Shown here piece by piece: positions 7,881-50,607 of a DNA stretch of 64,000 bases. The position numbers and the translations under genes are program-made. A model generated the notes under the pieces. It made no database searches, was not told where the DNA came from, and saw only the letters and a program-made list of their open reading frames with translations. Location: IMG/VR virus record IMGVR_UViG_3300045049_000125, positions 9,840 to 73,839 of that record; one strand, given 5' to 3'. This DNA comes from a virus. Position 1 is the stretch's first letter, and each line of letters opens with the position of its first letter.

Positions 7881-8960
7881 TTACCAAGCGTACCCGGCCG
7901 AAACCTTGACCGCGAGGTGATGCCCGAACCCATAGGAATCGGACAGCGCTCGGCTGATGCCTCCACCGATGTTGAACTGTTCGTTGACCTGATAGCCGAA
8001 CGCCAGACCCATGGCCGAGGCGCCATTGAACGATCCGAAGCCGCCGCCCACCCACTTCTGACCAGGAGCCAGTTGCGGAACCTGCGGAATCGCCATGGCC
8101 TGCGCCGTGCCGATGCTGGCGAAGCGAATGGCCTTGGTCAGGCCGGCGGCCACCTGTCGATCAGTGTAGGCGTTCGCCCAATTCAGGGTCTCAGCGGATG
8201 CGGACGCCACGCGGCTGTCGGTATATGCGGACGCGCTGGCGACGGCCGAGGCAGTTGCAGCAGTGGTCGCTGCGTTCAGTTGGTCCACGGTAACGGCGTC
8301 CGGAGCATTCTGACCTGCCGGACCCTGCGGACCTGCGGGGCCTTGCGGGCCGGTATCGCCCTTGGGGCCAGCCACGCCGGACTGCGCCAGAATATCCACG
8401 CGGGTCGAAAGCGCCGAAACCTGCGAACTCAGACCATTGAACTGAGCCATGTTCACGGCGTCACCATCATTGATGCCGGCGGCCACGTGGATCAGGCGCC
8501 GGTCACCGTACGTTGTGGAACCGAAAGATACGACATTGGACAATCCGTCATCGGACGATCCGAAACCGAACACGCCAGACATGGTGCCACTGGCCCAATT
8601 GAATGCGCCCACCGATGTGGTGTAATCGCCCGTGGCGCTCGACTTGTAGCCGATAGCCGAGCGGTACGCTTCGCCGGCATCATGCGCAGTGGTGCTGATC
8701 GTACCGGTATAGGCATACGCGCCCAGGGCGGTATCGCCCCGACCGATGGCCCATGCGGAATAGCCGACTGCCGTGCCGTAGTCGCCGGCCTTGGCGATGC
8801 GTGGTCGCGTGACGCCATCCGGGCCAGTAACGTTCATGGTGGGCGTGCTGGCGCCGATGGCGACAGACTGCGGAGTGGTGGGAAAACCTACCGGAATGGT
8901 CTGAGCGAACGCGCCCAGGGCCACGAAGGCCATGACTACGGAAAAGAGAATGCGTTTCAT
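7881..8960 (-). CDS. YadA-family trimeric autotransporter adhesin with collagen-like insert
   Basis: Signal peptide; SVAIG/TAVG/TALG/SAIG head repeats; neck RRLIHVAAGINDGDAVN; GPxGxx repeats; AYTD stalk; beta-barrel anchor ending SAGYAW. Confidence 0.9.
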   Translation of the reverse strand: MKRILFSVVMAFVALGAFAQTIPVGFPTTPQSVAIGASTPTMNVTGPDGVTRPRIAKAGDYGTAVGYSAWAIGRGDTALGAYAYTGTISTTAHDAGEAYRSAIGYKSSATGDYTTSVGAFNWASGTMSGVFGFGSSDDGLSNVVSFGSTTYGDRRLIHVAAGINDGDAVNMAQFNGLSSQVSALSTRVDILAQSGVAGPKGDTGPQGPAGPQGPAGQNAPDAVTVDQLNAATTAATASAVASASAYTDSRVASASAETLNWANAYTDRQVAAGLTKAIRFASIGTAQAMAIPQVPQLAPGQKWVGGGFGSFNGASAMGLAFGYQVNEQFNIGGGISRALSDSYGFGHHLAVKVSAGYAW

Positions 8961-9619: not shown

Positions 9620-10086
9620 TAAAAATCGCCGTCTTTGACGTGAAAGCACATGATGCCGTTCTTGCGCCACATGTCCACGATGCGGCGCCGATCATCAAAG
9701 ACGCCCACGAGTCGTGCACGATCTTCCGGGAGCATACGATCAAGCATTTCCTGTTTGATGACGTTATCCGGACGGTAGTCACCATTCGCTCGCATGACGA
9801 CTTGGCCGTTTTCAAGTTGGGCTGCGTCTAGTGGAGTGTAATTCCACAGCCATTCCAGCGTCTTCCCTCGCACGCTCTCAGGACGCCCGGTGAAGAACCA
9901 GATTTCGGCGTCATGCACATGCAATGCTTCGAGAACTTGCATGACCGGCTCATTCACGCCGTCCTTGTCGCACAGCTCGTAGAACACGTCCCACTGCTGC
10001 TCCGCGCGGTCGCATTCCACAAGGTGGCGACGGTGATCCGGATCAGATAGCGTGCCGTCGATGTCGAAAATCCAAAGGGGTCTCAC
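9619..10086 (-). CDS. HAD-family 3'-phosphatase (T4 PseT phosphatase-domain-like)
   Basis: FDIDGTL, FTGR, MR..GDYRPD..IK, FDDR motifs. Confidence 0.88.
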   Translation of the reverse strand: MRPLWIFDIDGTLSDPDHRRHLVECDRAEQQWDVFYELCDKDGVNEPVMQVLEALHVHDAEIWFFTGRPESVRGKTLEWLWNYTPLDAAQLENGQVVMRANGDYRPDNVIKQEMLDRMLPEDRARLVGVFDDRRRIVDMWRKNGIMCFHVKDGDF

Positions 10087-15036: not shown

Positions 15037-15246
15037 TCACAGCTCCGGACCCTTATCAAGCATATGCTTGAGGCGCATGCACGTGTGGCAGTCGCGAAGC
15101 GTCTTAACAGCTCGTTCAAGATCACGAATCGATTTGTCTGCCGCAAGAATGTCCAAGGGCTGCGCATAGGCAGGCATGGCTTCGGCGATGTCCAGGATTT
15201 CGGATACAGCCATATTAAATAGAGCTGGCGCCTGAATGGGAAGCAT
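15037..15246 (-). CDS. Hypothetical protein
   Basis: AGGA RBS. Confidence 0.5.
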   Translation of the reverse strand: MLPIQAPALFNMAVSEILDIAEAMPAYAQPLDILAADKSIRDLERAVKTLRDCHTCMRLKHMLDKGPEL

Positions 15247-15256
15247 TTGAAATTCC

Positions 15257-15496
15257 TTAGTGGAGAATGTGCCCGGGTGAACGTTCGACACGCATCACCT
15301 GAATACCTATTTCAGAGGAAATTGCCTCTATGCGGTCGCTTAATTGGAAATTGAAATCAACTCCGGGATTTAGAGGCGAAGTTTCGACATATTGGATATC
15401 CAGGTCTGTAACGATGACTGTGACATACGGAGATTCAAAATCCACCGTGTCACAGTGGTAAAACGCCATACCGTATTTTAAACCATTATCAGACAT
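15257..15496 (-). CDS. Hypothetical acidic protein (AT-rich DNA)
   Basis: Packed ORF. Confidence 0.5.
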   Translation of the reverse strand: MSDNGLKYGMAFYHCDTVDFESPYVTVIVTDLDIQYVETSPLNPGVDFNFQLSDRIEAISSEIGIQVMRVERSPGHILH

Positions 15497-15707
15497 TTTC
15501 ACCTCTGCGCTTAATTGCGGATTTAATGCGTCTTACACGACGCACGCTTAGGGCTTTCATAGACTGCGCTTTGCGCATGCTTTCCTCAGCCCTAGCGATT
15601 CGATTTTCCTCCGCATTTAGCCACACTTGAAGTGTGAGAAGTGAAGTATTCGGGTTTTCAATATCGGCCAATAAATCTCTATCTCGATTGCGTTCAGAAG
15701 CTTTCAT
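15489..15707 (-). CDS. Small coiled-coil protein (AT-rich DNA)
   Basis: Preceded by TTGCTA...TACAGT promoter-like site. Confidence 0.55.
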   Translation of the reverse strand: MKASERNRDRDLLADIENPNTSLLTLQVWLNAEENRIARAEESMRKAQSMKALSVRRVRRIKSAIKRRGENV

Positions 15708-15925: not shown

Positions 15926-15951
15926 AAAAAGCCCGCTTTACGCGGGCTTTT
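15926..15951. terminator. Bidirectional intrinsic terminator
   Basis: AAAAAGCCCGC-TTTAC-GCGGGCTTTT. Confidence 0.8.
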
Positions 15952-15962
15952 CTGTTTAAAAC

Positions 15963-16979
15963 TCAACCCGGCCATTTCCAGAATTCGGCCAAAATGGGCG
16001 GTTGTGCGAATCCCCAGCGGTGCGCAATCCCCATGGCATTCAGGCCGCGAGCTGTGGCCTGAATCAGTCGTTGGGCGAGTGTACGCTGTGCCATTCGGCG
16101 CCACTCGTCTCCCTTCTTGCGAGCGACATCTCCCGTCTCAGGGTGCAGACCCATATCACGCAGGAAGACGATCCCGCCTGTGGGAAGCGTGATTCGCAGG
16201 CCGGCAACCTGTGGAGTAAGGCGCACGTTTTCAAACGTGATTCGATGCGCCGGGCGGTTTTCGCCATCCTTCACCGGACCCACATCGATGGTGACTGGTT
16301 GCGCCGAATCCAGCGCGATTTTAGACGCGAGATACACATTTTCGGTGAACATCTCTCCATGCACCTGCGCCAGTATCGTGGCATTGCCCGGACCTTGCCA
16401 ACCGGCCGATTCGATGCCATGGGCATCCATGTGCATCGCCTCGTCAAAATCGTAACCTAGCGCTTGCAGGATGTGCATACCTTTCAAATGGGAAGTGTTC
16501 ATGAGCCATGCGAACGTCCACGCCACGCCACCCCAATCAAGGTTTGCTGCGAACGTCCCCGGCTCGCCGCCGGCCTTGATGTAGGCGCGGATACCGTTCA
16601 CCCACGCCTGTGCGGCCGGATCGTGATCTACGCCCGCGCGAACCAGTCCCTCGGCGTCCACGTGGTCGCATTCGTACGTGATTGCCAGCAAATCCAGGCT
16701 CCCCACCTGATATCCCTTCAATCGATCACAGAGAACCGAGCAACCCGTATCCATGTCCGGATTGATGAACCAAATCTTGTCGGACACGTTCATGAGTTTG
16801 CGCGCCAGTTCGTTGCCGAGGCGTGTGGGGAAATCCACCTTGTTCACGCGCCGAAGATCACTCAGGCGCGACAGGCGCGGGCCGAACTCTTCAAAGGGCA
16901 ATACCTGTTGGAGCGGATACATCGGATAGATGCCCGAATCGGCGTATTCGATGTAATCGGGCGTGACATTGATGAACAT
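15963..16979 (-). CDS. Degenerate family-A (SPO2/APSE-like) DNA polymerase domain, predicted inactive
   Basis: Colinear remnants: DLLAIT (motif A), KGMHILQALGY (motif B), LRITLPTG, RLIQATAR; motif C HDE absent. Confidence 0.5.
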   Translation of the reverse strand: MFINVTPDYIEYADSGIYPMYPLQQVLPFEEFGPRLSRLSDLRRVNKVDFPTRLGNELARKLMNVSDKIWFINPDMDTGCSVLCDRLKGYQVGSLDLLAITYECDHVDAEGLVRAGVDHDPAAQAWVNGIRAYIKAGGEPGTFAANLDWGGVAWTFAWLMNTSHLKGMHILQALGYDFDEAMHMDAHGIESAGWQGPGNATILAQVHGEMFTENVYLASKIALDSAQPVTIDVGPVKDGENRPAHRITFENVRLTPQVAGLRITLPTGGIVFLRDMGLHPETGDVARKKGDEWRRMAQRTLAQRLIQATARGLNAMGIAHRWGFAQPPILAEFWKWPG

Positions 16980-16980
16980 T

Positions 16981-17517
16981 TTAAAATCCTCGGTAGATGA
17001 GTCCACGGAATGTGCCACATTCCTGGCAAAACCAACAGTGTTTAGGGTTCTCGGCTCCGCATGGCGTGTATTCGCCTTCCTGAGCAATCAGCCCCATGGC
17101 GCGCGAGCGCATCGGGAAGGGCTCTCCGCAGCGCCACGTGCGCCGCGCAGGCTCAAGCCCTAGAATTGGCTCGGGCTCCATCACGTGGACGATAGGACGC
17201 GGCATGGCGATCTTCTCGAAGTACCGGCGCACGCCCTTCCATCGCTTGTCGCTGTCCACGCGGTGCATGTTGTAGCGCTGATGGACGATGCACACATCCA
17301 CCGGACCCATGCGGCGCTTGTTCGCGCTGTAGTGGCTCAGGGCCATGACAAGCACTTGGTCACGATGGTCGCAGCCTGCCGACAGATTGCGCTTAGGTGG
17401 ATGCGCAAGGATGTGGTCTGCGAGCATGGCCGCGTCTTGTGGAAACGCTTCGAGAATCAGCACCCGTGCGTTAGGGCGCTGATTCAAAACGTTCGCTAGG
17501 ATTGTCATGATTTCCAT
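16981..17517 (-). CDS. Degenerate SF2 (RadD/YejH-like) helicase domain fused to a Zn ribbon
   Basis: Aligns by eye to RecA1 of 44356..46143 with DEAH replaced by HQRY and no Walker A; ends CGAENPKHCWFCQECG. Confidence 0.5.
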   Translation of the reverse strand: MEIMTILANVLNQRPNARVLILEAFPQDAAMLADHILAHPPKRNLSAGCDHRDQVLVMALSHYSANKRRMGPVDVCIVHQRYNMHRVDSDKRWKGVRRYFEKIAMPRPIVHVMEPEPILGLEPARRTWRCGEPFPMRSRAMGLIAQEGEYTPCGAENPKHCWFCQECGTFRGLIYRGF

Positions 17518-18693: not shown

Positions 18694-19596
18694 TTACATT
18701 CCGAAATACTTTTCAAAGCAAATAGGGCCAATGCCTCGGTCGATGCTTTCCCCGTTGGTCAGCTCGCGACCGCAGCAGGAACACACGCCGAAGCGCTTGC
18801 CGTAGGCGATGGCCGATTGTGCGGGATCGGCGGTGACGGCCACGATTTCCGCTGTCTGCTCGGCAGTGCAGTCGCGCGTGCCCAGGAAGCGGCCGTTCAC
18901 GATCTTGCCCAGGTAATCGCCCGTGGCCTTGTGCTTCACGTACACGGCGCCTGCGTTGACGCTCTGCGCCTTGGCAAGCGAGAAGACGAATGCGTGATGC
19001 TCGCCGGCAAGGAGGATTTTCGGCGTCCGGATGCCCTTTTCCGTGGCTCGGATGAGGCTTTCCTTGATGTTCGAGACCGCGACCGCAGGCGCCTTGGCTT
19101 CGCGTTCAGCCTTGGCGGCAGCCAGCTTCGCCACGCAAGATTTAGCGGCGGCTAACTGGCGCTCCGTCAGCTCGCCGAACTTCTCGGCGGTCTCGCGCAG
19201 GCTAATGGCGAAATCGAAGTTTGAACCTGTCCACCATCGCACGATGTCCGGATGAGCGGCGCAGAACGCGGCGAATTTCTCGGCCACGGCATTCTGCTTG
19301 CGCTCCTTGGCCTTGCGCGAGGCGGCGCGGCTCTTGGCTCGCTGTTCCGGGCTGGTGGCGAATTCGAGCTTTCCCGTACCGCCGCATTTGAAGCATGTCG
19401 AACCGTGGATGCTGTAGCCACGATATCGGCCGGTGCCCATGCACTTGGGGCACTTTTCGATGTAGGGGTGCACTGCCGGTAGCGCCTTGACCTGCGTGAT
19501 GTCGGTGGGAACGCCCAGGCGCTCGGCCAGCTTATCAAGCTGGCCCACGTTAAGGCGCACATCGTCCAGGTCGTTCAGGTCGTTGAAGTCGATCAT
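18694..19596 (-). CDS. DUF6011-like protein with N-terminal DnaJ-type Zn finger
   Basis: CPKCMGTG, CFKCGGTG; C-terminal CSCCGRELT...SIDRGIGPIC. Confidence 0.75.
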   Translation of the reverse strand: MIDFNDLNDLDDVRLNVGQLDKLAERLGVPTDITQVKALPAVHPYIEKCPKCMGTGRYRGYSIHGSTCFKCGGTGKLEFATSPEQRAKSRAASRKAKERKQNAVAEKFAAFCAAHPDIVRWWTGSNFDFAISLRETAEKFGELTERQLAAAKSCVAKLAAAKAEREAKAPAVAVSNIKESLIRATEKGIRTPKILLAGEHHAFVFSLAKAQSVNAGAVYVKHKATGDYLGKIVNGRFLGTRDCTAEQTAEIVAVTADPAQSAIAYGKRFGVCSCCGRELTNGESIDRGIGPICFEKYFGM

Positions 19597-20421: not shown

Positions 20422-22494
20422 TCAACGGTTCAATTTGACGTATTCGTGCGGATAGCCGAATTGGTCATTTTCGTGAAAAATCTCGAAGAAATGACGGGTT
20501 GCACCGGCTTTGAGCAGAGCGTTCACGCGGTTACGATCCCATCCCGGCCAGCCCGGCATCTCCCAGCACATCGCGTGCACATGTTCGCGCGTACCGGGTT
20601 TCATGGTGAACCGTTCCATATTCGTCCGGAACATGAAGTCAGCCAGCAACGCGCAATCTTCGTCAGAAATGCCGTTGTTACCCTGCGCAATGGGTCCGTT
20701 GCTCAGGTTCGAGGTAAACGCTTCAAGATCGGGCGCCGCATCGATCACGCATGACATATCGGGCTGGCCCCATTGATCGGTTCCAACCTGTACACCCTTC
20801 AATACAAAATTCGCACCGATATTGTCCGCGCCGTCCTTCACCTTCTTCGTGGACCATGAACGAATGCCGCTGTCGCGGTCACGTTTAACCTCGATAGCCG
20901 AATCGATGCCTGCCAGAAATGCGCTAGACCCTCGCGGACCGCGCTCCGTGTCCTTACCGCTATGGTGAATCAGGATCACCACGCATTGCGTCTCACGAGC
21001 CAGGGTTTCGACCGCAACGAGATATTTCGACATCTCGGCCATGTCGTTTTCGTTCATGCCCGGCGCCGATTTCGCCAGCGTATCGATGCAAATGACGCCC
21101 TGACGCTGCTTGTTCTTGTAGATGGTGCGAATGAGCTTTTCCATATCTTCGGATTTGAGAATGTTCAAGCCATTCGTGAGCATCATCATGCGGCCCATGT
21201 TGCCGTGATGGATGCGATAGGCATACACGCGATTGCGCAAACCGGCCTCGCCTTCGAGACCAACATAAGTCACAGGGACTTGCCGTGTCTTGCGACCGAA
21301 CCAGTCATGACCGGATGCCACGGCCGCGAGCATATCCAGTGCAAGGAACGTCTTGCCCGAGCCCGAAGGCCCGTACACTGATGCCACCCCGCGTGCAGGC
21401 AACACGTTGTGAATGATCCACTCGGTTTGTGTGTATTCGGTCACGTCGTCAGTCCACAGTGCAGGGAATTCTTTTTCGCCATCCTCTTCGCCGAAAGCAA
21501 TTTCAATGTCTTCGGGATTGAACATTCGCCCCGATGCTTCAAGATCGGCGGCGGCGGCATTGATGTTTCGTTTAAGCCATCCCTCATATTGAGCCCGGCT
21601 CAGACCTGCGCGATTCTCGGAGCGATTCATGTACTCCGCGCATGGACTCTGCGTGTATAGACGCAATACCTGCTCATAATTTAATGAGCACTGTATCAGG
21701 TCCATAACCACTTGATAATGCATGTCAGAACCTCCCGTTTGGGATTGGTTCTTGTACATGTAATTTGCAGTCTCTGGGCAGCGGCGGAACATCTGCACCA
21801 TGACTTCAAAATCCGTATGCTTCGGATTATCGTGCCATTGGGCATTACTTCCTTGCGCTGCCTCTTTTGCAAGAGCGCAGCGTTTGAACAAGTAGTTTTG
21901 GAAATTTTCAGGAAGTGTGGAGAAATCAGCAAATCCCATGTCGGGATCGCTTACCACATCACCTGTTAGAAACACGAAACCGTTAACAACGCGAGTATCT
22001 ACTTTTTTCTCGCCGTTGTTGGTATTGCTCAATTGAGCCGCTTCAATGTCGCTCAACCAGTAAAAAGCGTGATAGCCCACACCCGACACACTGCGCTCCG
22101 TCCACGTGGGAGCGCGGTCCAAGATGTCATAGTGGGCTTGCTGTGTGAGCGCGGGCGTCGTCGGCGCGTCCGTGTCATCCAAATCCACACAGACGAGATT
22201 TTCAGGCATGTACAAAATGAGGCCGTGTACCTTGTTAGGCTGCTCGGCCTTGAGGTATTCGACTTCCTGAAACGCCTCTTCAAACGACATAGACGTTTCG
22301 AGACGGTTGGGACTGTAGCGTTCCCCCGTCACGGGATTGCGACCCACGGTCTTCACCACATCACCCGCATCATCCCAATGCGTCGAATAGGTGCCGAATC
22401 GGAAATCTTGGAAGTTGCGGAAAATCTCCGGTGTTACATGCGACTGTGCAGTCGCCACTGCTTCTCCGGAAAAATCGAAATTCAAATCTGCCAT
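20422..22494 (-). CDS. Primase-polymerase / RepA-like (AAA_25) helicase
   Basis: VDLDD, ERSVSGVGYH (prim-pol); GPSGSGKT, IDTL, IHHSGKD..RGPRGSS (helicase). Confidence 0.9.
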   Translation of the reverse strand: MADLNFDFSGEAVATAQSHVTPEIFRNFQDFRFGTYSTHWDDAGDVVKTVGRNPVTGERYSPNRLETSMSFEEAFQEVEYLKAEQPNKVHGLILYMPENLVCVDLDDTDAPTTPALTQQAHYDILDRAPTWTERSVSGVGYHAFYWLSDIEAAQLSNTNNGEKKVDTRVVNGFVFLTGDVVSDPDMGFADFSTLPENFQNYLFKRCALAKEAAQGSNAQWHDNPKHTDFEVMVQMFRRCPETANYMYKNQSQTGGSDMHYQVVMDLIQCSLNYEQVLRLYTQSPCAEYMNRSENRAGLSRAQYEGWLKRNINAAAADLEASGRMFNPEDIEIAFGEEDGEKEFPALWTDDVTEYTQTEWIIHNVLPARGVASVYGPSGSGKTFLALDMLAAVASGHDWFGRKTRQVPVTYVGLEGEAGLRNRVYAYRIHHGNMGRMMMLTNGLNILKSEDMEKLIRTIYKNKQRQGVICIDTLAKSAPGMNENDMAEMSKYLVAVETLARETQCVVILIHHSGKDTERGPRGSSAFLAGIDSAIEVKRDRDSGIRSWSTKKVKDGADNIGANFVLKGVQVGTDQWGQPDMSCVIDAAPDLEAFTSNLSNGPIAQGNNGISDEDCALLADFMFRTNMERFTMKPGTREHVHAMCWEMPGWPGWDRNRVNALLKAGATRHFFEIFHENDQFGYPHEYVKLNR

Positions 22495-35654: not shown

Positions 35655-37763
35655 TTAGCTCCAAAAAGAGTCAGAAACGATGTGGTCATCTTTCGTCATC
35701 GGCGCTGGACTTAGACCCTCTTCGGTCCAGCGCAGGGAATCACCAGTTATTCGCTTGATGACTCCAATGTCTTTCAAAATCTCGTTGGCTCGATAGACGT
35801 ACTCGTCGTAATTGATGTCATCAGGCATGCTGCCATCCGTGTCCATCAGAGGAATCGCCGCGTCCGACGAGGGGACGCGCTTCCCTGATTGAGCGTACAG
35901 CAAGCAATCGTCATAGTTTCGACCGTAGTAGTAACGCACTACCTTGCCGAGATACAAACGGAATGGATCGTCTATCTGTCGGTCCGTTCCCCATACCGCT
36001 CCGCCAGACACGTTGCGCACGGTAACAAAGTCATACACGTTAGTACAAGATCGAATCGTTTCCTCAATCGGTATACCTTCCGTCAAGAACTTCTCCACCG
36101 CATTCGCGCACACGTTGGCGCCCGGCGTGGTGCTTAGACCCTCCTTGGCATACAGACCCTTGCGCTTGGCCTCCTTCTTGCCGTCCTTGCCCTTCTTGAT
36201 GGCGAAATAGGAATTGACGTTTGCGCTGTGAATCGATTCGTATGACGTGTATTCCATTTCAAACTGGCACGTCTTCTGCCACCACGCGAGAATCTTATCG
36301 CGCAGCTCGGCTTGATCGTGACGAGCCTTGATGACGATACCGTCCGTGTTGGCCGAGATGACTTGGATGCCCACGGATTCCAGCGCATCAATAAGCATCA
36401 GCAATGAAAGCTGTCCGCTCAAGGTCACCTGGATTACAAACTGTGGCGAGTACAGAATAGAATACTTGCTACCAAACTTGCCGAACGATGAGTTAATAAC
36501 GATCTTGAGACTGTCGGCCACGACTTTGTTGCCCGTGGTCTTAGCCTCAAGGCGCGAACGCACAATCTCGTCATAGACTATGAGGAAGTCTGGACCCAAA
36601 TGCTCCGGGTATAGCTTCTGGTTTAGAATGATACGTGGATAGAACGACGCCACATCAGCGTCAACCAACGTGTATACATCATCCGCGTAGTGGCTTACTT
36701 CCTTTTCCGTCGAGTGAATGCCCCCGATGCCCAGGCGATAGACGCTGTTGCCAAGTCGGATATCCATCCCCGAAAGCGACTCGGGCAGGTCGATGTGTCC
36801 GCTTTCTCCGACGACGAAGCGCGAAGAACGCACGACTTCGAGCACAGAACGCATTGTTTCTGAACGATAGGACAGATACGACGGTACGTTATAGGCATAC
36901 GCAGTTCCGGGATCGATTTGCGGAGGTGTGGGCGAATAACCGGCCTGCCGCTCGAACATGGTTTTGATGACCTGTTCCGCAATCTGCGCGTCCGACTTGC
37001 TCAGCAGATTGATGCCGTATTGATTCGACATCGCAATGCGCAGGTCGATTTCACCCTTGAGTTTGTTCGCCAGTTCTTCTGTCAAGCGCAAGTCATTGCA
37101 CATGTAGTAGCGAACAATGGCTTTCTGTTCAAAACTCAAACGAGTTTCCGGAGGAAACGGAAGGTCTTGCATACGCTGCGTATGCATGCGGCCGCCATAG
37201 ATTTTAAGGCTATGAAATCCCGGCACGATTTCCTGCAAGTCAATTTGATCTTCCACACGCAGACGCGGACAACGTGCGCCTTTAAGGATGAGGGACGGGG
37301 CAACCTTTCCGACAATCATGTCGTCTGACGCCTTCTTGAGCGTGGCGTTATCCGCGCCGTTCAGAGCAAGCGCTAGCATGGTCAAGTCATACTTGTCGGA
37401 ATTAAATCCAATAATTGGAAAACGGTTTAGAATCCACGTTAGCTTAGAGATGTCGAGCGATAGCCCATTCTCGGGGTCAAGCTCCATCCAATCCACCTCG
37501 CCAGTGCGGCGATTGCGGAAGCCCACAGCGAAATAGTTGGGATAACACTCCGTATCCATCGACAGCCAATCACCAGCGGCCAGTGCTTCGCGCCAGGACT
37601 TCGGAGTCATTCGGGTGAGTCCTTCCATGCGCGTGGCCTTATCAAGACCGGGGAGGAAGGTGGGGGCCAGCCAGAACGGTTTGGGTTTGACTTTTTTTGG
37701 CTTCACAGCCATTCGTGGCTCGGACCAAAACAGTCCGATCGCATCATGTCGTTCTTTCGCCAT
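35655..37763 (-). CDS. Family B DNA polymerase with proofreading domain
   Basis: DTECY (ExoI), FNS.KYD, DVASFYP, KIVINSSFGK, NTDGI. Confidence 0.93.
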   Translation of the reverse strand: MAKERHDAIGLFWSEPRMAVKPKKVKPKPFWLAPTFLPGLDKATRMEGLTRMTPKSWREALAAGDWLSMDTECYPNYFAVGFRNRRTGEVDWMELDPENGLSLDISKLTWILNRFPIIGFNSDKYDLTMLALALNGADNATLKKASDDMIVGKVAPSLILKGARCPRLRVEDQIDLQEIVPGFHSLKIYGGRMHTQRMQDLPFPPETRLSFEQKAIVRYYMCNDLRLTEELANKLKGEIDLRIAMSNQYGINLLSKSDAQIAEQVIKTMFERQAGYSPTPPQIDPGTAYAYNVPSYLSYRSETMRSVLEVVRSSRFVVGESGHIDLPESLSGMDIRLGNSVYRLGIGGIHSTEKEVSHYADDVYTLVDADVASFYPRIILNQKLYPEHLGPDFLIVYDEIVRSRLEAKTTGNKVVADSLKIVINSSFGKFGSKYSILYSPQFVIQVTLSGQLSLLMLIDALESVGIQVISANTDGIVIKARHDQAELRDKILAWWQKTCQFEMEYTSYESIHSANVNSYFAIKKGKDGKKEAKRKGLYAKEGLSTTPGANVCANAVEKFLTEGIPIEETIRSCTNVYDFVTVRNVSGGAVWGTDRQIDDPFRLYLGKVVRYYYGRNYDDCLLYAQSGKRVPSSDAAIPLMDTDGSMPDDINYDEYVYRANEILKDIGVIKRITGDSLRWTEEGLSPAPMTKDDHIVSDSFWS

Positions 37764-44355: not shown

Positions 44356-46143
44356 TTAGAACGGAATGTCTTCTTCCTGGAAAGAAAGCGCTATCTCAGG
44401 GTTTTGGTACACCTGCGCCTCTTCCGTTCCGAATGCCGTTCCGTCCATGCACCAATCGAGAATGTCCGGATATTTCTTATTGACCCACACTCGAATATGC
44501 GTTGTGGTTGGAAAAAAATCAGACTCTTCAATGACTTGCTCGGACGTTGCCGGAATCGATCCCGTAGGGAATCGCTTGCGGAACCATTTGTGTGCTTTGA
44601 ATTTGGCATAGCCGTCATGTTCAAAACACAGATATTCGTGAAACACTCGAATACCGCACGTATAAGACACGTGCACCATATCGGGCTTACCGGCTTTTTG
44701 GTGGAGCTGGTAAGACGTGTAATCCACGCGGAAGATTTCAACCTGAGGCGTACCGTCCTCGCTCTCTTTGATGAGGGCATCAGAGCTGGCCCGCTTGGTG
44801 ATTTTTTCTTTGATCGGTGGCGCTGGGCACTGGCAATGCGGACAGACACGCAACGAAGCGTGATACATCGTTCGGCAACCCGTATGTTCAATGACGCCGG
44901 GCATCCATACGGCCACCGCCGCACCCGTCTGCGGGTCTTCCAGCCATGTGGCGCATTCGCGCACGGGCGCCTCACCTCCACCTTTCTGGCCTTTCTTGCG
45001 CGGGATCACGGGATCGTTGATACAGCCCAGGCGCTTGGTGTTGCCCGCGAAATCGCCCACAAGGCAATCGCGATGCAGGACGTCGGCAGGCTTCGGGCGC
45101 GTGCCACGGCCAAGCATCTGGACCCACAGGACTGCGGACTTGGTGGCACGCAGCATCATGATGTAGTCCACGCTTGGCACGTCATAGCCAGTGGTCAACA
45201 CACCCATGTTGCAGAGCGCGCGGGCTTGTCCGCTTTCAAACAGATTCTTTGCGCCGTTGTTCGTGGCAGGGTCCATGGAATCCGGATCACCGGCCGGCTT
45301 TTTACTGTGGACGCACACCGCTGGCACGCCATAGCTATTGAGCCATTGCGTGACGTCCTCCACATGCTTCACGCCCGTGCAAAACACCAACCAGTGATTG
45401 CGGTCTGCCGCCGCGTCAAGGCTTTCCTCAATGGCAGCGCGCGTGATTTCCTCGCGATTCGTGACTTTTTCCAGCTCGTCTAGCTGGAAGTCGCCGGCCG
45501 TTGTGGCAACGTCGGACGTATCGATTTGCAGATTAGTGCGCAGTGGACGCAGTGTCGCAAGCCAATCATTCGCAATGAATTCGTGGAAATCTTCAATGCC
45601 GATTTTAGAATAGCAACGATGCGTAAATAGTGCATCGCCATCATCAATATTGCCCAAGCCCTGGCGCCACGGGGTGGCAGTCAGGCCAATCACTTTCATT
45701 TTCGGGTTGGCTTTCCACAGCCCCTCGATACACCGGCGATAGCGCGTCTTTGCCTTCCAGTCCACCATGTGGGCCTCGTCAATCAGCATGATTGAGCGCT
45801 TGCCGAATAGGTGCGGCTTCTTGGCTACGGAGTCGATGCCAGCCCACAGAATGGGCGCGTCCACTTCGCGGCGATTCAATCCGGCGTGGTAGATGCCGAG
45901 CGGAGCTTGCGGCCAGATGGATAGCAGCTTGTTGGAATTCTGTTGAACCAGAGTTTCAGAATGTGTTGCACAGAAAATGTGCGAATTTGGGAACATGTCC
46001 ATATAGCGATGGACGATGCCGCCCAGCACGATGGATTTGCCCGTACCTGTGGGTAGACAGATGGTCGGATGACCCTTATTTCCGGCGCGATAGTAATCAA
46101 AGGGGGCCTGGATGGCCTCAACCTGATAAGGGCGGAGTTGCAT
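44356..46143 (-). CDS. SF2 DNA helicase (RadD/YejH-like) with Zn finger
   Basis: LRPYQ, PTGTGKS, DEAH, LTATP, LTTGYD, QMLGRGTR; acidic DIPF tail. Confidence 0.93.
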   Translation of the reverse strand: MQLRPYQVEAIQAPFDYYRAGNKGHPTICLPTGTGKSIVLGGIVHRYMDMFPNSHIFCATHSETLVQQNSNKLLSIWPQAPLGIYHAGLNRREVDAPILWAGIDSVAKKPHLFGKRSIMLIDEAHMVDWKAKTRYRRCIEGLWKANPKMKVIGLTATPWRQGLGNIDDGDALFTHRCYSKIGIEDFHEFIANDWLATLRPLRTNLQIDTSDVATTAGDFQLDELEKVTNREEITRAAIEESLDAAADRNHWLVFCTGVKHVEDVTQWLNSYGVPAVCVHSKKPAGDPDSMDPATNNGAKNLFESGQARALCNMGVLTTGYDVPSVDYIMMLRATKSAVLWVQMLGRGTRPKPADVLHRDCLVGDFAGNTKRLGCINDPVIPRKKGQKGGGEAPVRECATWLEDPQTGAAVAVWMPGVIEHTGCRTMYHASLRVCPHCQCPAPPIKEKITKRASSDALIKESEDGTPQVEIFRVDYTSYQLHQKAGKPDMVHVSYTCGIRVFHEYLCFEHDGYAKFKAHKWFRKRFPTGSIPATSEQVIEESDFFPTTTHIRVWVNKKYPDILDWCMDGTAFGTEEAQVYQNPEIALSFQEEDIPF

Positions 46144-48123: not shown

Positions 48124-50607
48124 ATGAACCTCTTTTCTCGCCTCTTCCGAAAGCGCCCGATTGCCAAGGCAGTCGAAGCGTCTAAAATCGTTCCTCGAAC
48201 AGCGGCCGATCTTGGTCCTGTGGAAATCACTCCGCCCGACTTCGCGGGCCTGCCGAAAAATCCGCTTGATGGACTTCCCACCATCAATGATTTTCCCACC
48301 GTAGAAAAGTTCGCCGAATCTAAAACCGTCCAGACCAAGGATGGAAAAGTTTTTGTTGGCGACGCGGCATCGCATCCGGTCATTACGCAGGACGGAACCT
48401 ATCAGGGATCGGGAACGCCATCCGTGAATGTGGCGTGGAGCGCGTACACGGTGCCGGAGGCTGTGGGCAACTGGTACAACGCGCAATCATTCATCGGCTA
48501 TCAAACCTGCGGTTTGATGCAACAGCATTGGCTTGTGGACAAGGCATGCCGTATGCCGGGCGAAGACGCCACGCGCAACGGTTATGAATTGTCGGTGATG
48601 AACGACGATGATCCGAATTTTGAAGGTCTTGGCGTGGACATCGAAACGTTTATTGCCCGCGTTCGCGAACTGGACAAGGATTATAAAATCGCTGAACACA
48701 TGCGTGAGATGTGGCGCTTCACGCAAGTGTTCGGTATTCGCGTGTGCATCTTCCAGGTGGAGAGTCAAGACCCTGATTATTACGCCAAGCCGTTTAATAT
48801 TGATGGCGTTACGAAGGGCTCGTATAAGGGAATCAAGCAGGTTGATCCCTATTGGATGATGCCGGTCTTTGGCGAAGGGTTCAGCGACCCAACCAGCCAA
48901 AATTTCTACGTTCCAGAATATTGGACTATTGGCGGAAAGAAATACCACAAGTCGCATTTGGTTATCGGCAAGGGGCCGGAACCAATGGACATTTTGAAGC
49001 CAATGTACATCTTTGGTGGCATTCCTCTGACGCAGCGCATTTATGAGCGCGTCTATAACGCAGAGCGCACAGCGAACGAAGGGCCATTGCTGGCTACATC
49101 GAAGCGTCAAACCGTACTGCACACGGATTTGATGGCAGCGGAAGCGCATCCGCAACGATTCTTGAATCGCATCATGAAATGGGTCTCTCACCGAGACAAT
49201 TTCGGCGTCAAGACGGTTGGTCTTGAGGATGCGGTTGAACAATTTGACACCTCGTTGGCTGATCTTGATTCGGTCATCATGAATCAATATCAGCTCGTGG
49301 CCGCTATCGCCGAAGTTCCGGCAACCAAGTTGCTGGGCACTTCTCCGAAAGGATTTCAATCCAACGGTTCGGGTGAAGAAAAGAACTACCATGAAAAGCT
49401 CGAATCTGTGCAAGCGTTCTTGACGCCACTGCTGCAACGCCACCATCAGCTCGTGGTCAAGAGCGAATATGGTGTGGACATCCAGCTTGAGGCGGTGTGG
49501 AACCGTACCGATTCGTTCACGGCGGCGGAGCTGGCCGATCTTAATTTGAAGAAGGCCCAAACGGGCGAAATTCTGCTCAACCTTGGTGCGACATCGCCGG
49601 ATGATGAGCGCAACCGTGTCAAGAATGATCCTCTCTCCGGTTACAACCACTTGGGCGACGAGGAAGCCTCAAGCGACATGGGTGCATCGCCGGAGAACGA
49701 AGCGAAATTGCAGACGGCAGAATCGAAGGAACAAACCGCGCAAGCAAAGGAAACGGAAGTGGGAGCGCCTTCCGATGCAATCGCTATGAAACCAGACCTT
49801 GATCGTCTGGCGGCATCGCTACAGCCACATATGGAAAACGACGATCTTGATGCAGGTCTCATGGATCGACTGCGCCAATTTCATGCGATGGTCACGGGAA
49901 GTGGGGCGGACAATTTGGATTGCGAAGACATCCGCCCCATTCTCGAAGCGCTGGCAAAGATGCTCAACGCTCCGTCTATTATGGATGCTATTACCGTTAA
50001 GCGTCGCGCCATGGAGCCCACCGTTACACGCTCGGTTCTGCCCAGCGTGAATCCTGCCATGCGTACCGAAGTCAACACGGGCGCACGCACATTGCTCGGA
50101 GATGCGGCAGTGGCAGGACGTGGCTACAGCGAGACCGGTTTGCCTGATTCAGGCATGGGTGCGAAGTACAGCCATCGCAATATGCCAAAGGTGAAAATGG
50201 GTCGTATGACCATTTCCATTGAAAATCGAAAAGGCACTGTGCGCTCGGGTGAGACATTGGAAGGAAAGGCATGGTCCACCCTAATGCCGCACCATTATGG
50301 TTACATCAACGGTGTGGAAGGCGCCGATGGCGATGAACTAGATGCTTTCGTTGGTCCGAACACAAAGAGCCGTCTTGTTGTAGTTATTAATCAGGTTGAG
50401 CCGACAAATCGCGAATTTGACGAACATAAAGTGATGTTCGGTTTTAATAGCGAAGAGGAAGCCCTTGAAGCGTACGCAATGAGTTATCAGAAGGATTGGG
50501 ACGGCTACGATTCGCATGTAGTATTCCAGGACTTGGAATCTTTCCGAGAATGGATGCGAAGCGCTGATCTTTCGGCGCCTTGCTCCGATTATCGAACGTT
50601 TGAATAA
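48124..50607 (+). CDS. Portal protein (DUF1073-like) fused to C-terminal InPase-like domain
   Basis: FIGYQ.C....QHWLV.KAC..P..DA.RNG, IA.VP.TKLLG.SP.G; tail IENRKG..RSG, YGYI....GADGD.LD.FVG, FDEHKVMFGF. Confidence 0.88.
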   Translation: MNLFSRLFRKRPIAKAVEASKIVPRTAADLGPVEITPPDFAGLPKNPLDGLPTINDFPTVEKFAESKTVQTKDGKVFVGDAASHPVITQDGTYQGSGTPSVNVAWSAYTVPEAVGNWYNAQSFIGYQTCGLMQQHWLVDKACRMPGEDATRNGYELSVMNDDDPNFEGLGVDIETFIARVRELDKDYKIAEHMREMWRFTQVFGIRVCIFQVESQDPDYYAKPFNIDGVTKGSYKGIKQVDPYWMMPVFGEGFSDPTSQNFYVPEYWTIGGKKYHKSHLVIGKGPEPMDILKPMYIFGGIPLTQRIYERVYNAERTANEGPLLATSKRQTVLHTDLMAAEAHPQRFLNRIMKWVSHRDNFGVKTVGLEDAVEQFDTSLADLDSVIMNQYQLVAAIAEVPATKLLGTSPKGFQSNGSGEEKNYHEKLESVQAFLTPLLQRHHQLVVKSEYGVDIQLEAVWNRTDSFTAAELADLNLKKAQTGEILLNLGATSPDDERNRVKNDPLSGYNHLGDEEASSDMGASPENEAKLQTAESKEQTAQAKETEVGAPSDAIAMKPDLDRLAASLQPHMENDDLDAGLMDRLRQFHAMVTGSGADNLDCEDIRPILEALAKMLNAPSIMDAITVKRRAMEPTVTRSVLPSVNPAMRTEVNTGARTLLGDAAVAGRGYSETGLPDSGMGAKYSHRNMPKVKMGRMTISIENRKGTVRSGETLEGKAWSTLMPHHYGYINGVEGADGDELDAFVGPNTKSRLVVVINQVEPTNREFDEHKVMFGFNSEEEALEAYAMSYQKDWDGYDSHVVFQDLESFREWMRSADLSAPCSDYRTFE

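Follow-up and report, generated by a model that had tools for sequence, protein, structure and literature searches.

A probable non-catalytic descendant of phage family-A DNA polymerases in a virus that encodes a family-B polymerase

We analysed a window of 64,000 nucleotides of viral DNA (IMG/VR record IMGVR_UViG_3300045049_000125, positions 9,840 to 73,839 of that record; all positions below are those of the window). P0001, a minus-strand gene of the window, encodes a protein of 338 residues. We propose, with a probability of roughly 0.7, that P0001 descends from a phage family-A DNA polymerase (PolA) of the SPO2/KPP25/APSE type and now stands alone as a non-catalytic protein, a double pseudoenzyme that probably acts in binding. 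An earlier sequence-only reading had described this open reading frame (ORF) as a degenerate PolA polymerase domain, and the ORF and all the peptide strings quoted in it are present on the minus strand at 15963-16979. The gene is laid out as follows.

15963-16979, minus strand: P0001 coding sequence, 338 residues, putative PolA-derived two-domain pseudoenzyme (translation, homologues, AlphaFold2 model).
16560-16979, minus strand: residues 1 to ~140, DEDD (DnaQ-like) 3'-5' exonuclease fold, catalytic acids not conserved.
15966-16559, minus strand: residues 141-338, probable remnant comprising PolA fingers, the expanded beta-hairpin (TGR) and the motif-6 helix (C-domain AlphaFold2 model, Foldseek against BFVD, hhalign).
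16017-16385, minus strand: best-conserved core, residues 199-321 (family alignment).
16987-16991, minus strand: Shine-Dalgarno sequence GAGGA, 8 nt 5' of the P0001 ATG (direct sequence reading).
15926-15952, minus strand: hairpin of the intrinsic-terminator type, 11-bp stem with a U-rich 3' side, beginning 11 nt past the P0001 stop codon (RNA fold).

The structure of P0001 was predicted by AlphaFold2 from an alignment of 15 family members, which also underlies the conservation data below. The model (predicted local distance difference test, pLDDT, 84; predicted template modelling score, pTM, 0.82) is composed of two domains, and disorder is confined to residues 17-40. The N-terminal part has an RNase H-like exonuclease fold of the DEDD type. 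The protein had been said to have no exonuclease domain; residues 1 to ~140 carry one, at least as a fold. When the model is aligned exhaustively with 48,161 solved chains by VIA-align, family-A DNA polymerases rank first, aligned over model residues 1-338. A re-check of Foldseek's own matches adds Bst (8.7) and T7 (8.5), and all 24 of the 24 best rows are PolA. Foldseek itself places T7 polymerase on top when the whole model is compared with the PDB, but at an E-value of only 0.19.

PolA chains contain a DEDD fold, on which a whole-length Z score could lean. Therefore, residues 145-338 were modelled alone. The resulting C-domain model has a pLDDT of 93, and its best Foldseek matches in BFVD are A0A516LTM5 (E 4.8e-5) and the Pol I of Xanthomonas phage phiXaf18 (E 3.6e-4), both with a probability of 1.0 and a TMq of 0.5. 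Further matches are phage PolAs as well, including TinyTimothy Pol I, APSE-4, and RDJL Phi 1. The sequence-only reading had proposed structure prediction as a check and named the lack of any PolA hit as its refutation; phage PolAs are what the search returned. In the P0001 model a four-strand meander lies before and around the TGR turn and aligns with the matching APSE-type segment. A finger beta-hairpin expanded by several extra strands is a described signature of SPO2-like and KPP25-like PolAs, of which there is no solved structure, and the expanded element overlaps the T7 elements that stabilise the template strand (PMC10201439). The P0001 model in the ESM Atlas is poor (pLDDT 0.36) and leans to PolA clusters at a TM score of ~0.3, and we use it as a lead only.

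Profile-profile comparison points to the same subfamily. APSE-type PolA genes were taken from IMG/VR, 96 of them were aligned, and the alignment was compared with the P0001 family alignment by local hhalign. Whole against whole, the score is 35.7 to 39.2 (P 1.6e-3 to 5e-4); with reversed profiles the score drops to 19, and none of 40 column shuffles exceeds 23.9, against the real 35.7. The C-terminal half of P0001 aligns colinearly with PolA residues 376-687 (E 3.2e-5, probability 73%), in support of the descent from an SPO2/APSE-type polymerase that had been suggested by eye. The N-terminal half aligns with the exonuclease domain at an E-value of 1.3e-3, whereas non-cognate domain pairs give E-values of 0.08-0.24. 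The confident block joins P0001 residues 197-315 with APSE-type residues ~519-635. It spans a helix, the beta-meander with GLRITLPTGG facing WLRIxLPSGR, a second hairpin, and then RTLAQRLIQATARG facing GKIIENICQSTARD. The motif-6 pairing sets RxxAxxIxxQxAxD of P0001 against ENICQxxARD of the APSE-type enzymes. Two of the matches first noticed by eye, LRITLPTGG with LRIxLPSGR and LIQATAR with ENICQxxARD, thus recur in the profile alignment. Two further pairings fall in the exonuclease part: WFINPDMD opposite the ExoII motif WHNGGMFD, and QVGSLDLLAITY opposite LPGALGLLCDIF. As an aside on the reference set, the polymerase gene of APSE-1 (L001 28827-31808) has 993 codons, compared with ~687 in most relatives, and an HNH endonuclease coding sequence is annotated inside it, pointing to an inserted mobile element.

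Several results weigh against a PolA origin or against the role that we propose, and the homology support is not yet decisive. The hhalign probabilities are moderate (73% and 19%), and the BFVD targets are predicted models themselves. PF00476 matches neither P0001, nor any of the 15 members at E 10, nor any other place in the 73.8-kb genome. The sequence-only reading had named this family for a profile-profile check; in sequence-to-profile searches, PolA is not recognised at all. What we claim is descent from PolA, not membership of PF00476. A search of PDB sequences with the family profile A2 gives chance matches only and no PolA chain. In nearly all members the TGR turn has Gly in place of its arginine, and P0001 itself has Gly312 where 14 of the 15 members keep the Asp of motif 6, so the canonical DNA contacts may be gone. 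Among public sequencing runs, no RNA run is listed for this stretch.

One alternative is a protein that is not derived from PolA at all, in which a degenerate DEDD domain is fused to an unrelated alpha/beta domain and the likeness to the finger insertion has arisen by chance or convergence. The blank Pfam and PDB sequence searches speak for this possibility, as does an hhalign probability of 73% rather than >95%. However, two independent methods converge on one PolA subfamily and, within it, on one segment and one order of elements, and cognate domain pairs do better than non-cognate ones by a factor of 100 to 1000. We therefore regard a non-PolA origin as unlikely and prefer descent from PolA.

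The comparison with APSE-type PolA also shows which parts of the polymerase have been lost. The APSE-type enzyme consists of the exonuclease domain (~1-190), the thumb (~200-375), motif A (387-392), motif B (441-456), the insertion, motif 6 (610-618), and HDE (640-642), and ends at residue 687. P0001 runs from the exonuclease fold almost straight to the helix after motif A, and its fingers are shortened. Only ~10 residues lie between the exonuclease domain and the position of motif A, compared with ~175 in APSE-type PolA, and the APSE-type thumb segment aligns with neither half of P0001 (hhalign E 0.18-0.39), indicating that the thumb is absent. What remains after the exonuclease-like domain is fingers, TGR beta-sheet, and motif-6 helix. 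The palm is not included, and the label of polymerase domain given to P0001 earlier does not fit. The TGR hairpin and the motif-6 helix are both present and both degenerate.

AWTFAWL (residues 153-159) is the segment of P0001 that best matches the helix following motif A; it pairs with MLAWLAG at an E-value of 0.007. In this AWL-to-AWL register, Leu147 and Val152 of P0001 stand where APSE-type PolA has its catalytic Asp387 and Glu392. The motif A columns are hydrophobic or variable throughout the family, and the model has no strand there; motif A as such is lost. The segment that had been read as motif A, GYQVGSLDLLAIT (residues 89-101), lies elsewhere, inside the exonuclease-like N-domain, and aligns with the exonuclease segment LPGxLxxLC. 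For motif B, three equally weak registers compete, and a basic residue is conserved in none of them. One hhalign run does pair ALGY with LGLGY, as had been proposed, but other registers score as well and the match is unconfirmed. Between residues 140 and 200 of the family alignment there is no invariant K or R, and only the Tyr/Phe of ALGY is mostly kept. The alignment stops at the motif-6 helix, and the HDE of the APSE-type enzymes lies ~20 residues farther on. In the models, P0001 ends 17 residues past the motif-6 helix, where a loop of 6 residues and a short helix are all that follows, confirming that the protein ends before motif C.

The N-domain has lost its active site as well. Across the family it has no invariant acidic column, so the four acids of a DEDD nuclease are not conserved. 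The DxE of ExoI is replaced by V5 and P7, at positions where the family residues are hydrophobic or variable, and the ExoII-like N73 and D77 are the only DEDD-type traces seen. Taken over the family, no D, E, K, or R is invariant at the motif A and motif B positions or in the exonuclease domain. The loss of catalysis stated in the sequence-only reading is borne out: no catalytic acidic or basic residue is conserved, and motif C is absent. Judged by its residues, P0001 cannot be a polymerase or a proofreading nuclease of a known kind: it has lost the acids of the DEDD site and of motif A, the basic residues of motif B, motif C, and the thumb, and it is predicted to be unable to polymerise or to proofread. 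A split polymerase that carries motif C in a downstream ORF was considered and rejected. The small ORFs at 15037-15707 have no HDE-type segment, the terminator follows P0001, and motifs A and B are dead in any case.

An enzyme of another kind could still be imagined, either a 3'-5' exonuclease that relies on non-canonical residues or a new activity arising from the polar residues D224, Q227, T230, N251, R253, and R274. The retained Asn73 and Asp77 of the ExoII-like site are in keeping with the former, and the latter residues form an invariant polar and charged cluster in the C-domain that is not common to PolA. Against both stand the N-domain without an invariant acidic column, the missing DxE of ExoI, and the location of the conserved C-domain residues, which lie on turns and beta-strands as is typical of structural or binding residues. 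We consider retained or new enzymatic activity quite improbable. In the preferred reading of P0001 as a non-catalytic protein, the same polar cluster, not shared with PolA, may mark a new binding site.

P0001 belongs to a small family. Among ~15 billion predicted proteins, we found ~16 relatives of 228-372 residues, all unnamed and all from uncultured material, nearly all of them in Logan assemblies; several lie on contigs of 70-71.5 kb. An exhaustive phmmer search gave no longer or fused form. Pfam and PHROGs have zero matches to P0001, Pfam searched with the 15 members at E 10 gives chance matches only, and the P0001 sequence finds only a chance helix-turn-helix match (E 1.8) among PDB sequences. 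Scans of IMG/VR and of JGI metagenomes returned zero relatives. A tblastn search of 50,697 phage records gave zero matches; therefore, cultured PB1-like relatives have no close P0001 homologue.

Although identity within the family falls to 22%, there is one sharply conserved core and the length is conserved. In the core, a long helix ending in ALD[ST]PQPVT is followed by the four-strand meander (NVRL, GLRITLPTGG), then by F.R and the R.......Q....D helix. Residues A218, A222, L223, D224, Q227, T230, N251, R253, G260, L261, F272, and R274 are invariant, and P266, T267, G268, G269, and D312 are nearly so. Residues 1-200 have zero invariant acidic or basic residues. The segment 226-338 is basic (isoelectric point, pI, 9.7-12), whereas the remainder is acidic.

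A core kept down to 22% identity argues for purifying selection, as far as an alignment can tell, and the sharp core and conserved length together argue for a functional protein rather than a decaying gene. That bears on the simplest alternative, in which P0001 is a functionless, decaying relic, in effect a pseudogene of a displaced PolA. The large deletions, the loss of all catalytic residues, and the very narrow distribution would suit a relic. It is nevertheless scarcely credible: the frame is intact in ~16 lineages with that core and length, the gene has a good ribosome site and translational coupling, and the predicted fold is confident and compact.

The signals around the gene mark a real ORF. 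The stop codon of the upstream ORF (TAA, 16981-16983) is separated from the P0001 ATG by 1 nt (TAA-A-ATG). The ATG at 16979 is the likely start, judging from the sequence around it. A longer form starting at TTG 17087 was rejected: it would overlap the upstream gene, a good Shine-Dalgarno sequence precedes the ATG at 16979, and most homologues share the Met-Phe start. The hairpin past the stop codon has a folding energy of -19 kcal/mol (z -4.5), a value that none of 200 shuffles reaches; a simple consensus terminator scan does not list it. Its flanks are A-rich on the 5' side and U-rich on the 3' side, and it could terminate transcription both ways. Given the coupling to the upstream ORF and the hairpin after the stop, P0001 is the final gene of a transcription unit and is translationally coupled.

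The upstream ORF encodes a small basic protein, P0017.

16981-17517, minus strand: P0017, 178 residues, upstream of P0001 and translationally coupled to it, with a C-terminal CxxC...CxxC zinc ribbon and a pI of 9.2.

P0017 has an invariant C-terminal GTFRGLIYRGF. Its identity in three relatives is 64-70%, compared with 40-63% for P0001 in the same relatives. Two P0017 relatives come from contigs measuring 17193 and 14034 bp; contigs of just these lengths carry P0004 and P0003, relatives of P0001, which suggests that homologues of P0017 and P0001 co-occur. P0017 has zero matches among PDB sequences. Leads to helicase or RecA-like folds come from weak structural matches in the ESM Atlas (TM 0.35-0.40). 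The proposal that P0017 is a paralogue of the SF2 helicase of the phage finds no sequence support (BLASTP E 0.32, hhalign E 0.51).

The virus record is complete (73,839 bp, direct terminal repeats), and the window covers most of it. Two metagenome runs, from soil and rhizosphere, contain the stretch without a single difference and may be its source. The portal and head genes are distant relatives, with short stretches of 66-68% DNA identity, of those in PB1-like myophages of Pseudomonas, Burkholderia, and Xanthomonas, and the replication genes lie in a long minus-strand block.

20422-22494, minus strand: PrimPol/AAA_25 primase-helicase.
35655-37763, minus strand: DNA polymerase, 702 residues, very divergent family B (phrog_1252, E 3e-190; E. 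coli Pol II, E 1e-6 over ~110 residues).
44356-46143, minus-strand block: SF2 helicase.
Minus-strand replication block: SSB-like, Sak4-like, methyltransferase, ligase, and thymidylate synthase genes.

The polymerase at 35655-37763 has no Pfam family at E 0.001 and is assigned to family B from its phrog_1252 match together with the weak match to E. coli Pol II. P0001 is not a copy of this polymerase: hhalign between the two gives an E-value of 0.64, and the enzyme is of family B.

Other genes of the window deserve a brief record. A protein of 300 residues (phrog_4046; 18694-19596, minus strand), encoded between the primase-helicase gene and the P0017/P0001 pair, carries a C-terminal DUF6011 domain as well as a zinc-finger stretch of the DnaJ type (CxxCxGxG). 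The gene for the large terminase subunit (31314-32750, minus strand) lies within the replication block, far from the plus-strand portal and head genes. The portal protein (Phage_portal_3; 48124-50607, plus strand) has a C-terminal InPase (inorganic pyrophosphatase-like) domain (E 1e-40); most rows of the matching phage records name the gene "minor head protein", and one, that of Luteibacter phage Pluto, names it "inorganic pyrophosphatase". A protein of 359 residues (7881-8960, minus strand) combines a YadA stalk, a YadA head repeat, and a YadA membrane anchor, the architecture of a trimeric autotransporter adhesin, here in a phage genome.

Because the phage replicates with its own family-B polymerase, P0001 is most simply seen as a relic of an earlier PolA that has been kept for a new job. 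Polymerase swapping is documented in Caudoviricetes (PMC11348598). An ancestral SPO2/KPP25-type PolA would have been displaced by the family-B enzyme in such a swap, and the remnant would have been exapted. The exonuclease-like and finger parts, with the expanded hairpin where they meet, may have kept a cleft or surface for binding, since the corresponding parts of genuine PolAs flank the path of the single-stranded template. P0001 could thus bind DNA, either single-stranded or forked, or a partner in the replisome, and it may form a complex with the small basic zinc-ribbon protein P0017 that would act in replication or recombination. We favour a non-catalytic binding module that works with P0017 because of the parts retained, the basic residues 226-338, and the apparent co-occurrence of the basic zinc-ribbon protein. 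Its logic would resemble that of UL8, an inactivated family-B polymerase in the service of the herpesvirus helicase-primase.

Alternatively, P0001 might be an anti-defence or host-takeover factor, a dead look-alike that occupies host sensors of the polymerase fold or a competitor of host Pol I for DNA or partners. Catalysis plays no part in the recognition of the core PolA fold by Avs19, and the targets of Avs20 are RecA-type ATPase domains (PMC13581612); P0001 closes a transcription unit in a group of small early or middle ORFans, next to a protein with weak helicase-like leads. However, the phage uses a family-B polymerase and needs no protection from a PolA sensor, Avs19 requires the core polymerase domain, which is largely deleted in P0001, nothing links P0001 to defence (no PADLOC or anti-defence search was made), and the family is confined to a few related phages. 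The prospect of such a factor is therefore slim. A more specific proposal, in which the P0017 and P0001 pair is a dedicated decoy or blocker that occupies host sensors of the Avs19/Avs20 class, which recognise the folds of phage replication proteins, without triggering them, is a similarly long shot. A milder version would be a UL8-like non-catalytic subunit that bridges the primase-helicase and the family-B polymerase.

If P0001 is indeed a non-catalytic PolA descendant, it provides a compact example of a replicase dismantled after polymerase swapping, with an exonuclease-fingers scaffold and a subfamily-specific beta-sheet kept under selection. Its small size (338 residues) and good model make it a convenient object for asking what the non-catalytic parts of PolA do alone. 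More generally, structure-based searches can name ORFans that every sequence library has missed. The reach of the case is limited, as the family is very rare and is known only from uncultured soil phages.

The closest known relatives are the SPO2-like and KPP25-like PolAs, clusters 3 and 12 of Czernecki et al. 2023 (PMC10201439), which include the APSE and phiXaf18 polymerases and give the best Foldseek and hhalign matches of P0001. As far as the model and the alignments show, P0001 shares with them an exonuclease fold followed by fingers, the AWL helix after motif A, the expanded finger hairpin with L-R-I-x-L-P-[ST]-G, and the motif-6 helix with Q..A.D. P0001 is half as long (338 compared with 600-690 residues) and lacks the thumb, the strand and acids of motif A, the Arg/Lys of motif B, motif C, and the DEDD acids, and the TGR Arg is Gly. 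It also has invariant residues of its own (ALD[ST]PQPVT, NxR) and is unrecognised by PF00476. From the DEDD exonucleases RNase D, ExnV1, and the epsilon subunit of Pol III, it differs in that the catalytic acids of the family are not conserved and ExoI is absent.

The divPolA1 and divPolA2 proteins (Yutin et al. 2024, PMC11348598) offer a parallel. They too are second, highly diverged PolA-like genes beside a regular replicase, which in the phage of P0001 is of family B, and in them too the thumb is truncated or absent and the exonuclease inactive or missing. However, they keep the palm and the catalytic residues and are thought to be active (PMC11348598), whereas the P0001 family has lost these residues. 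A direct relationship with divPolA2 was rejected (hhalign of A2 with AUR84708, E 0.38, probability 0.2%).

Inactivated polymerase homologues with non-catalytic jobs are known in family B (UL8, F12) and in family Y (ImuB-like); the literature searched yielded no inactivated derivative of family A, and none in phages. The family-B cases are herpesvirus UL8, poxvirus F12, and the helicase-fused pDNAP of polinton-like viruses; UL8 is a subunit of the herpesvirus helicase-primase, and in polinton-like viruses the dead polymerase comes joined to a helicase (PMC4304020, PMC5499653). Like P0001, these are viral polymerase homologues that have lost catalysis and have been kept for a non-catalytic role. 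Unlike P0001, they belong to family B rather than family A, occur with other hosts, and keep most of the polymerase fold, of which about half is left in P0001.
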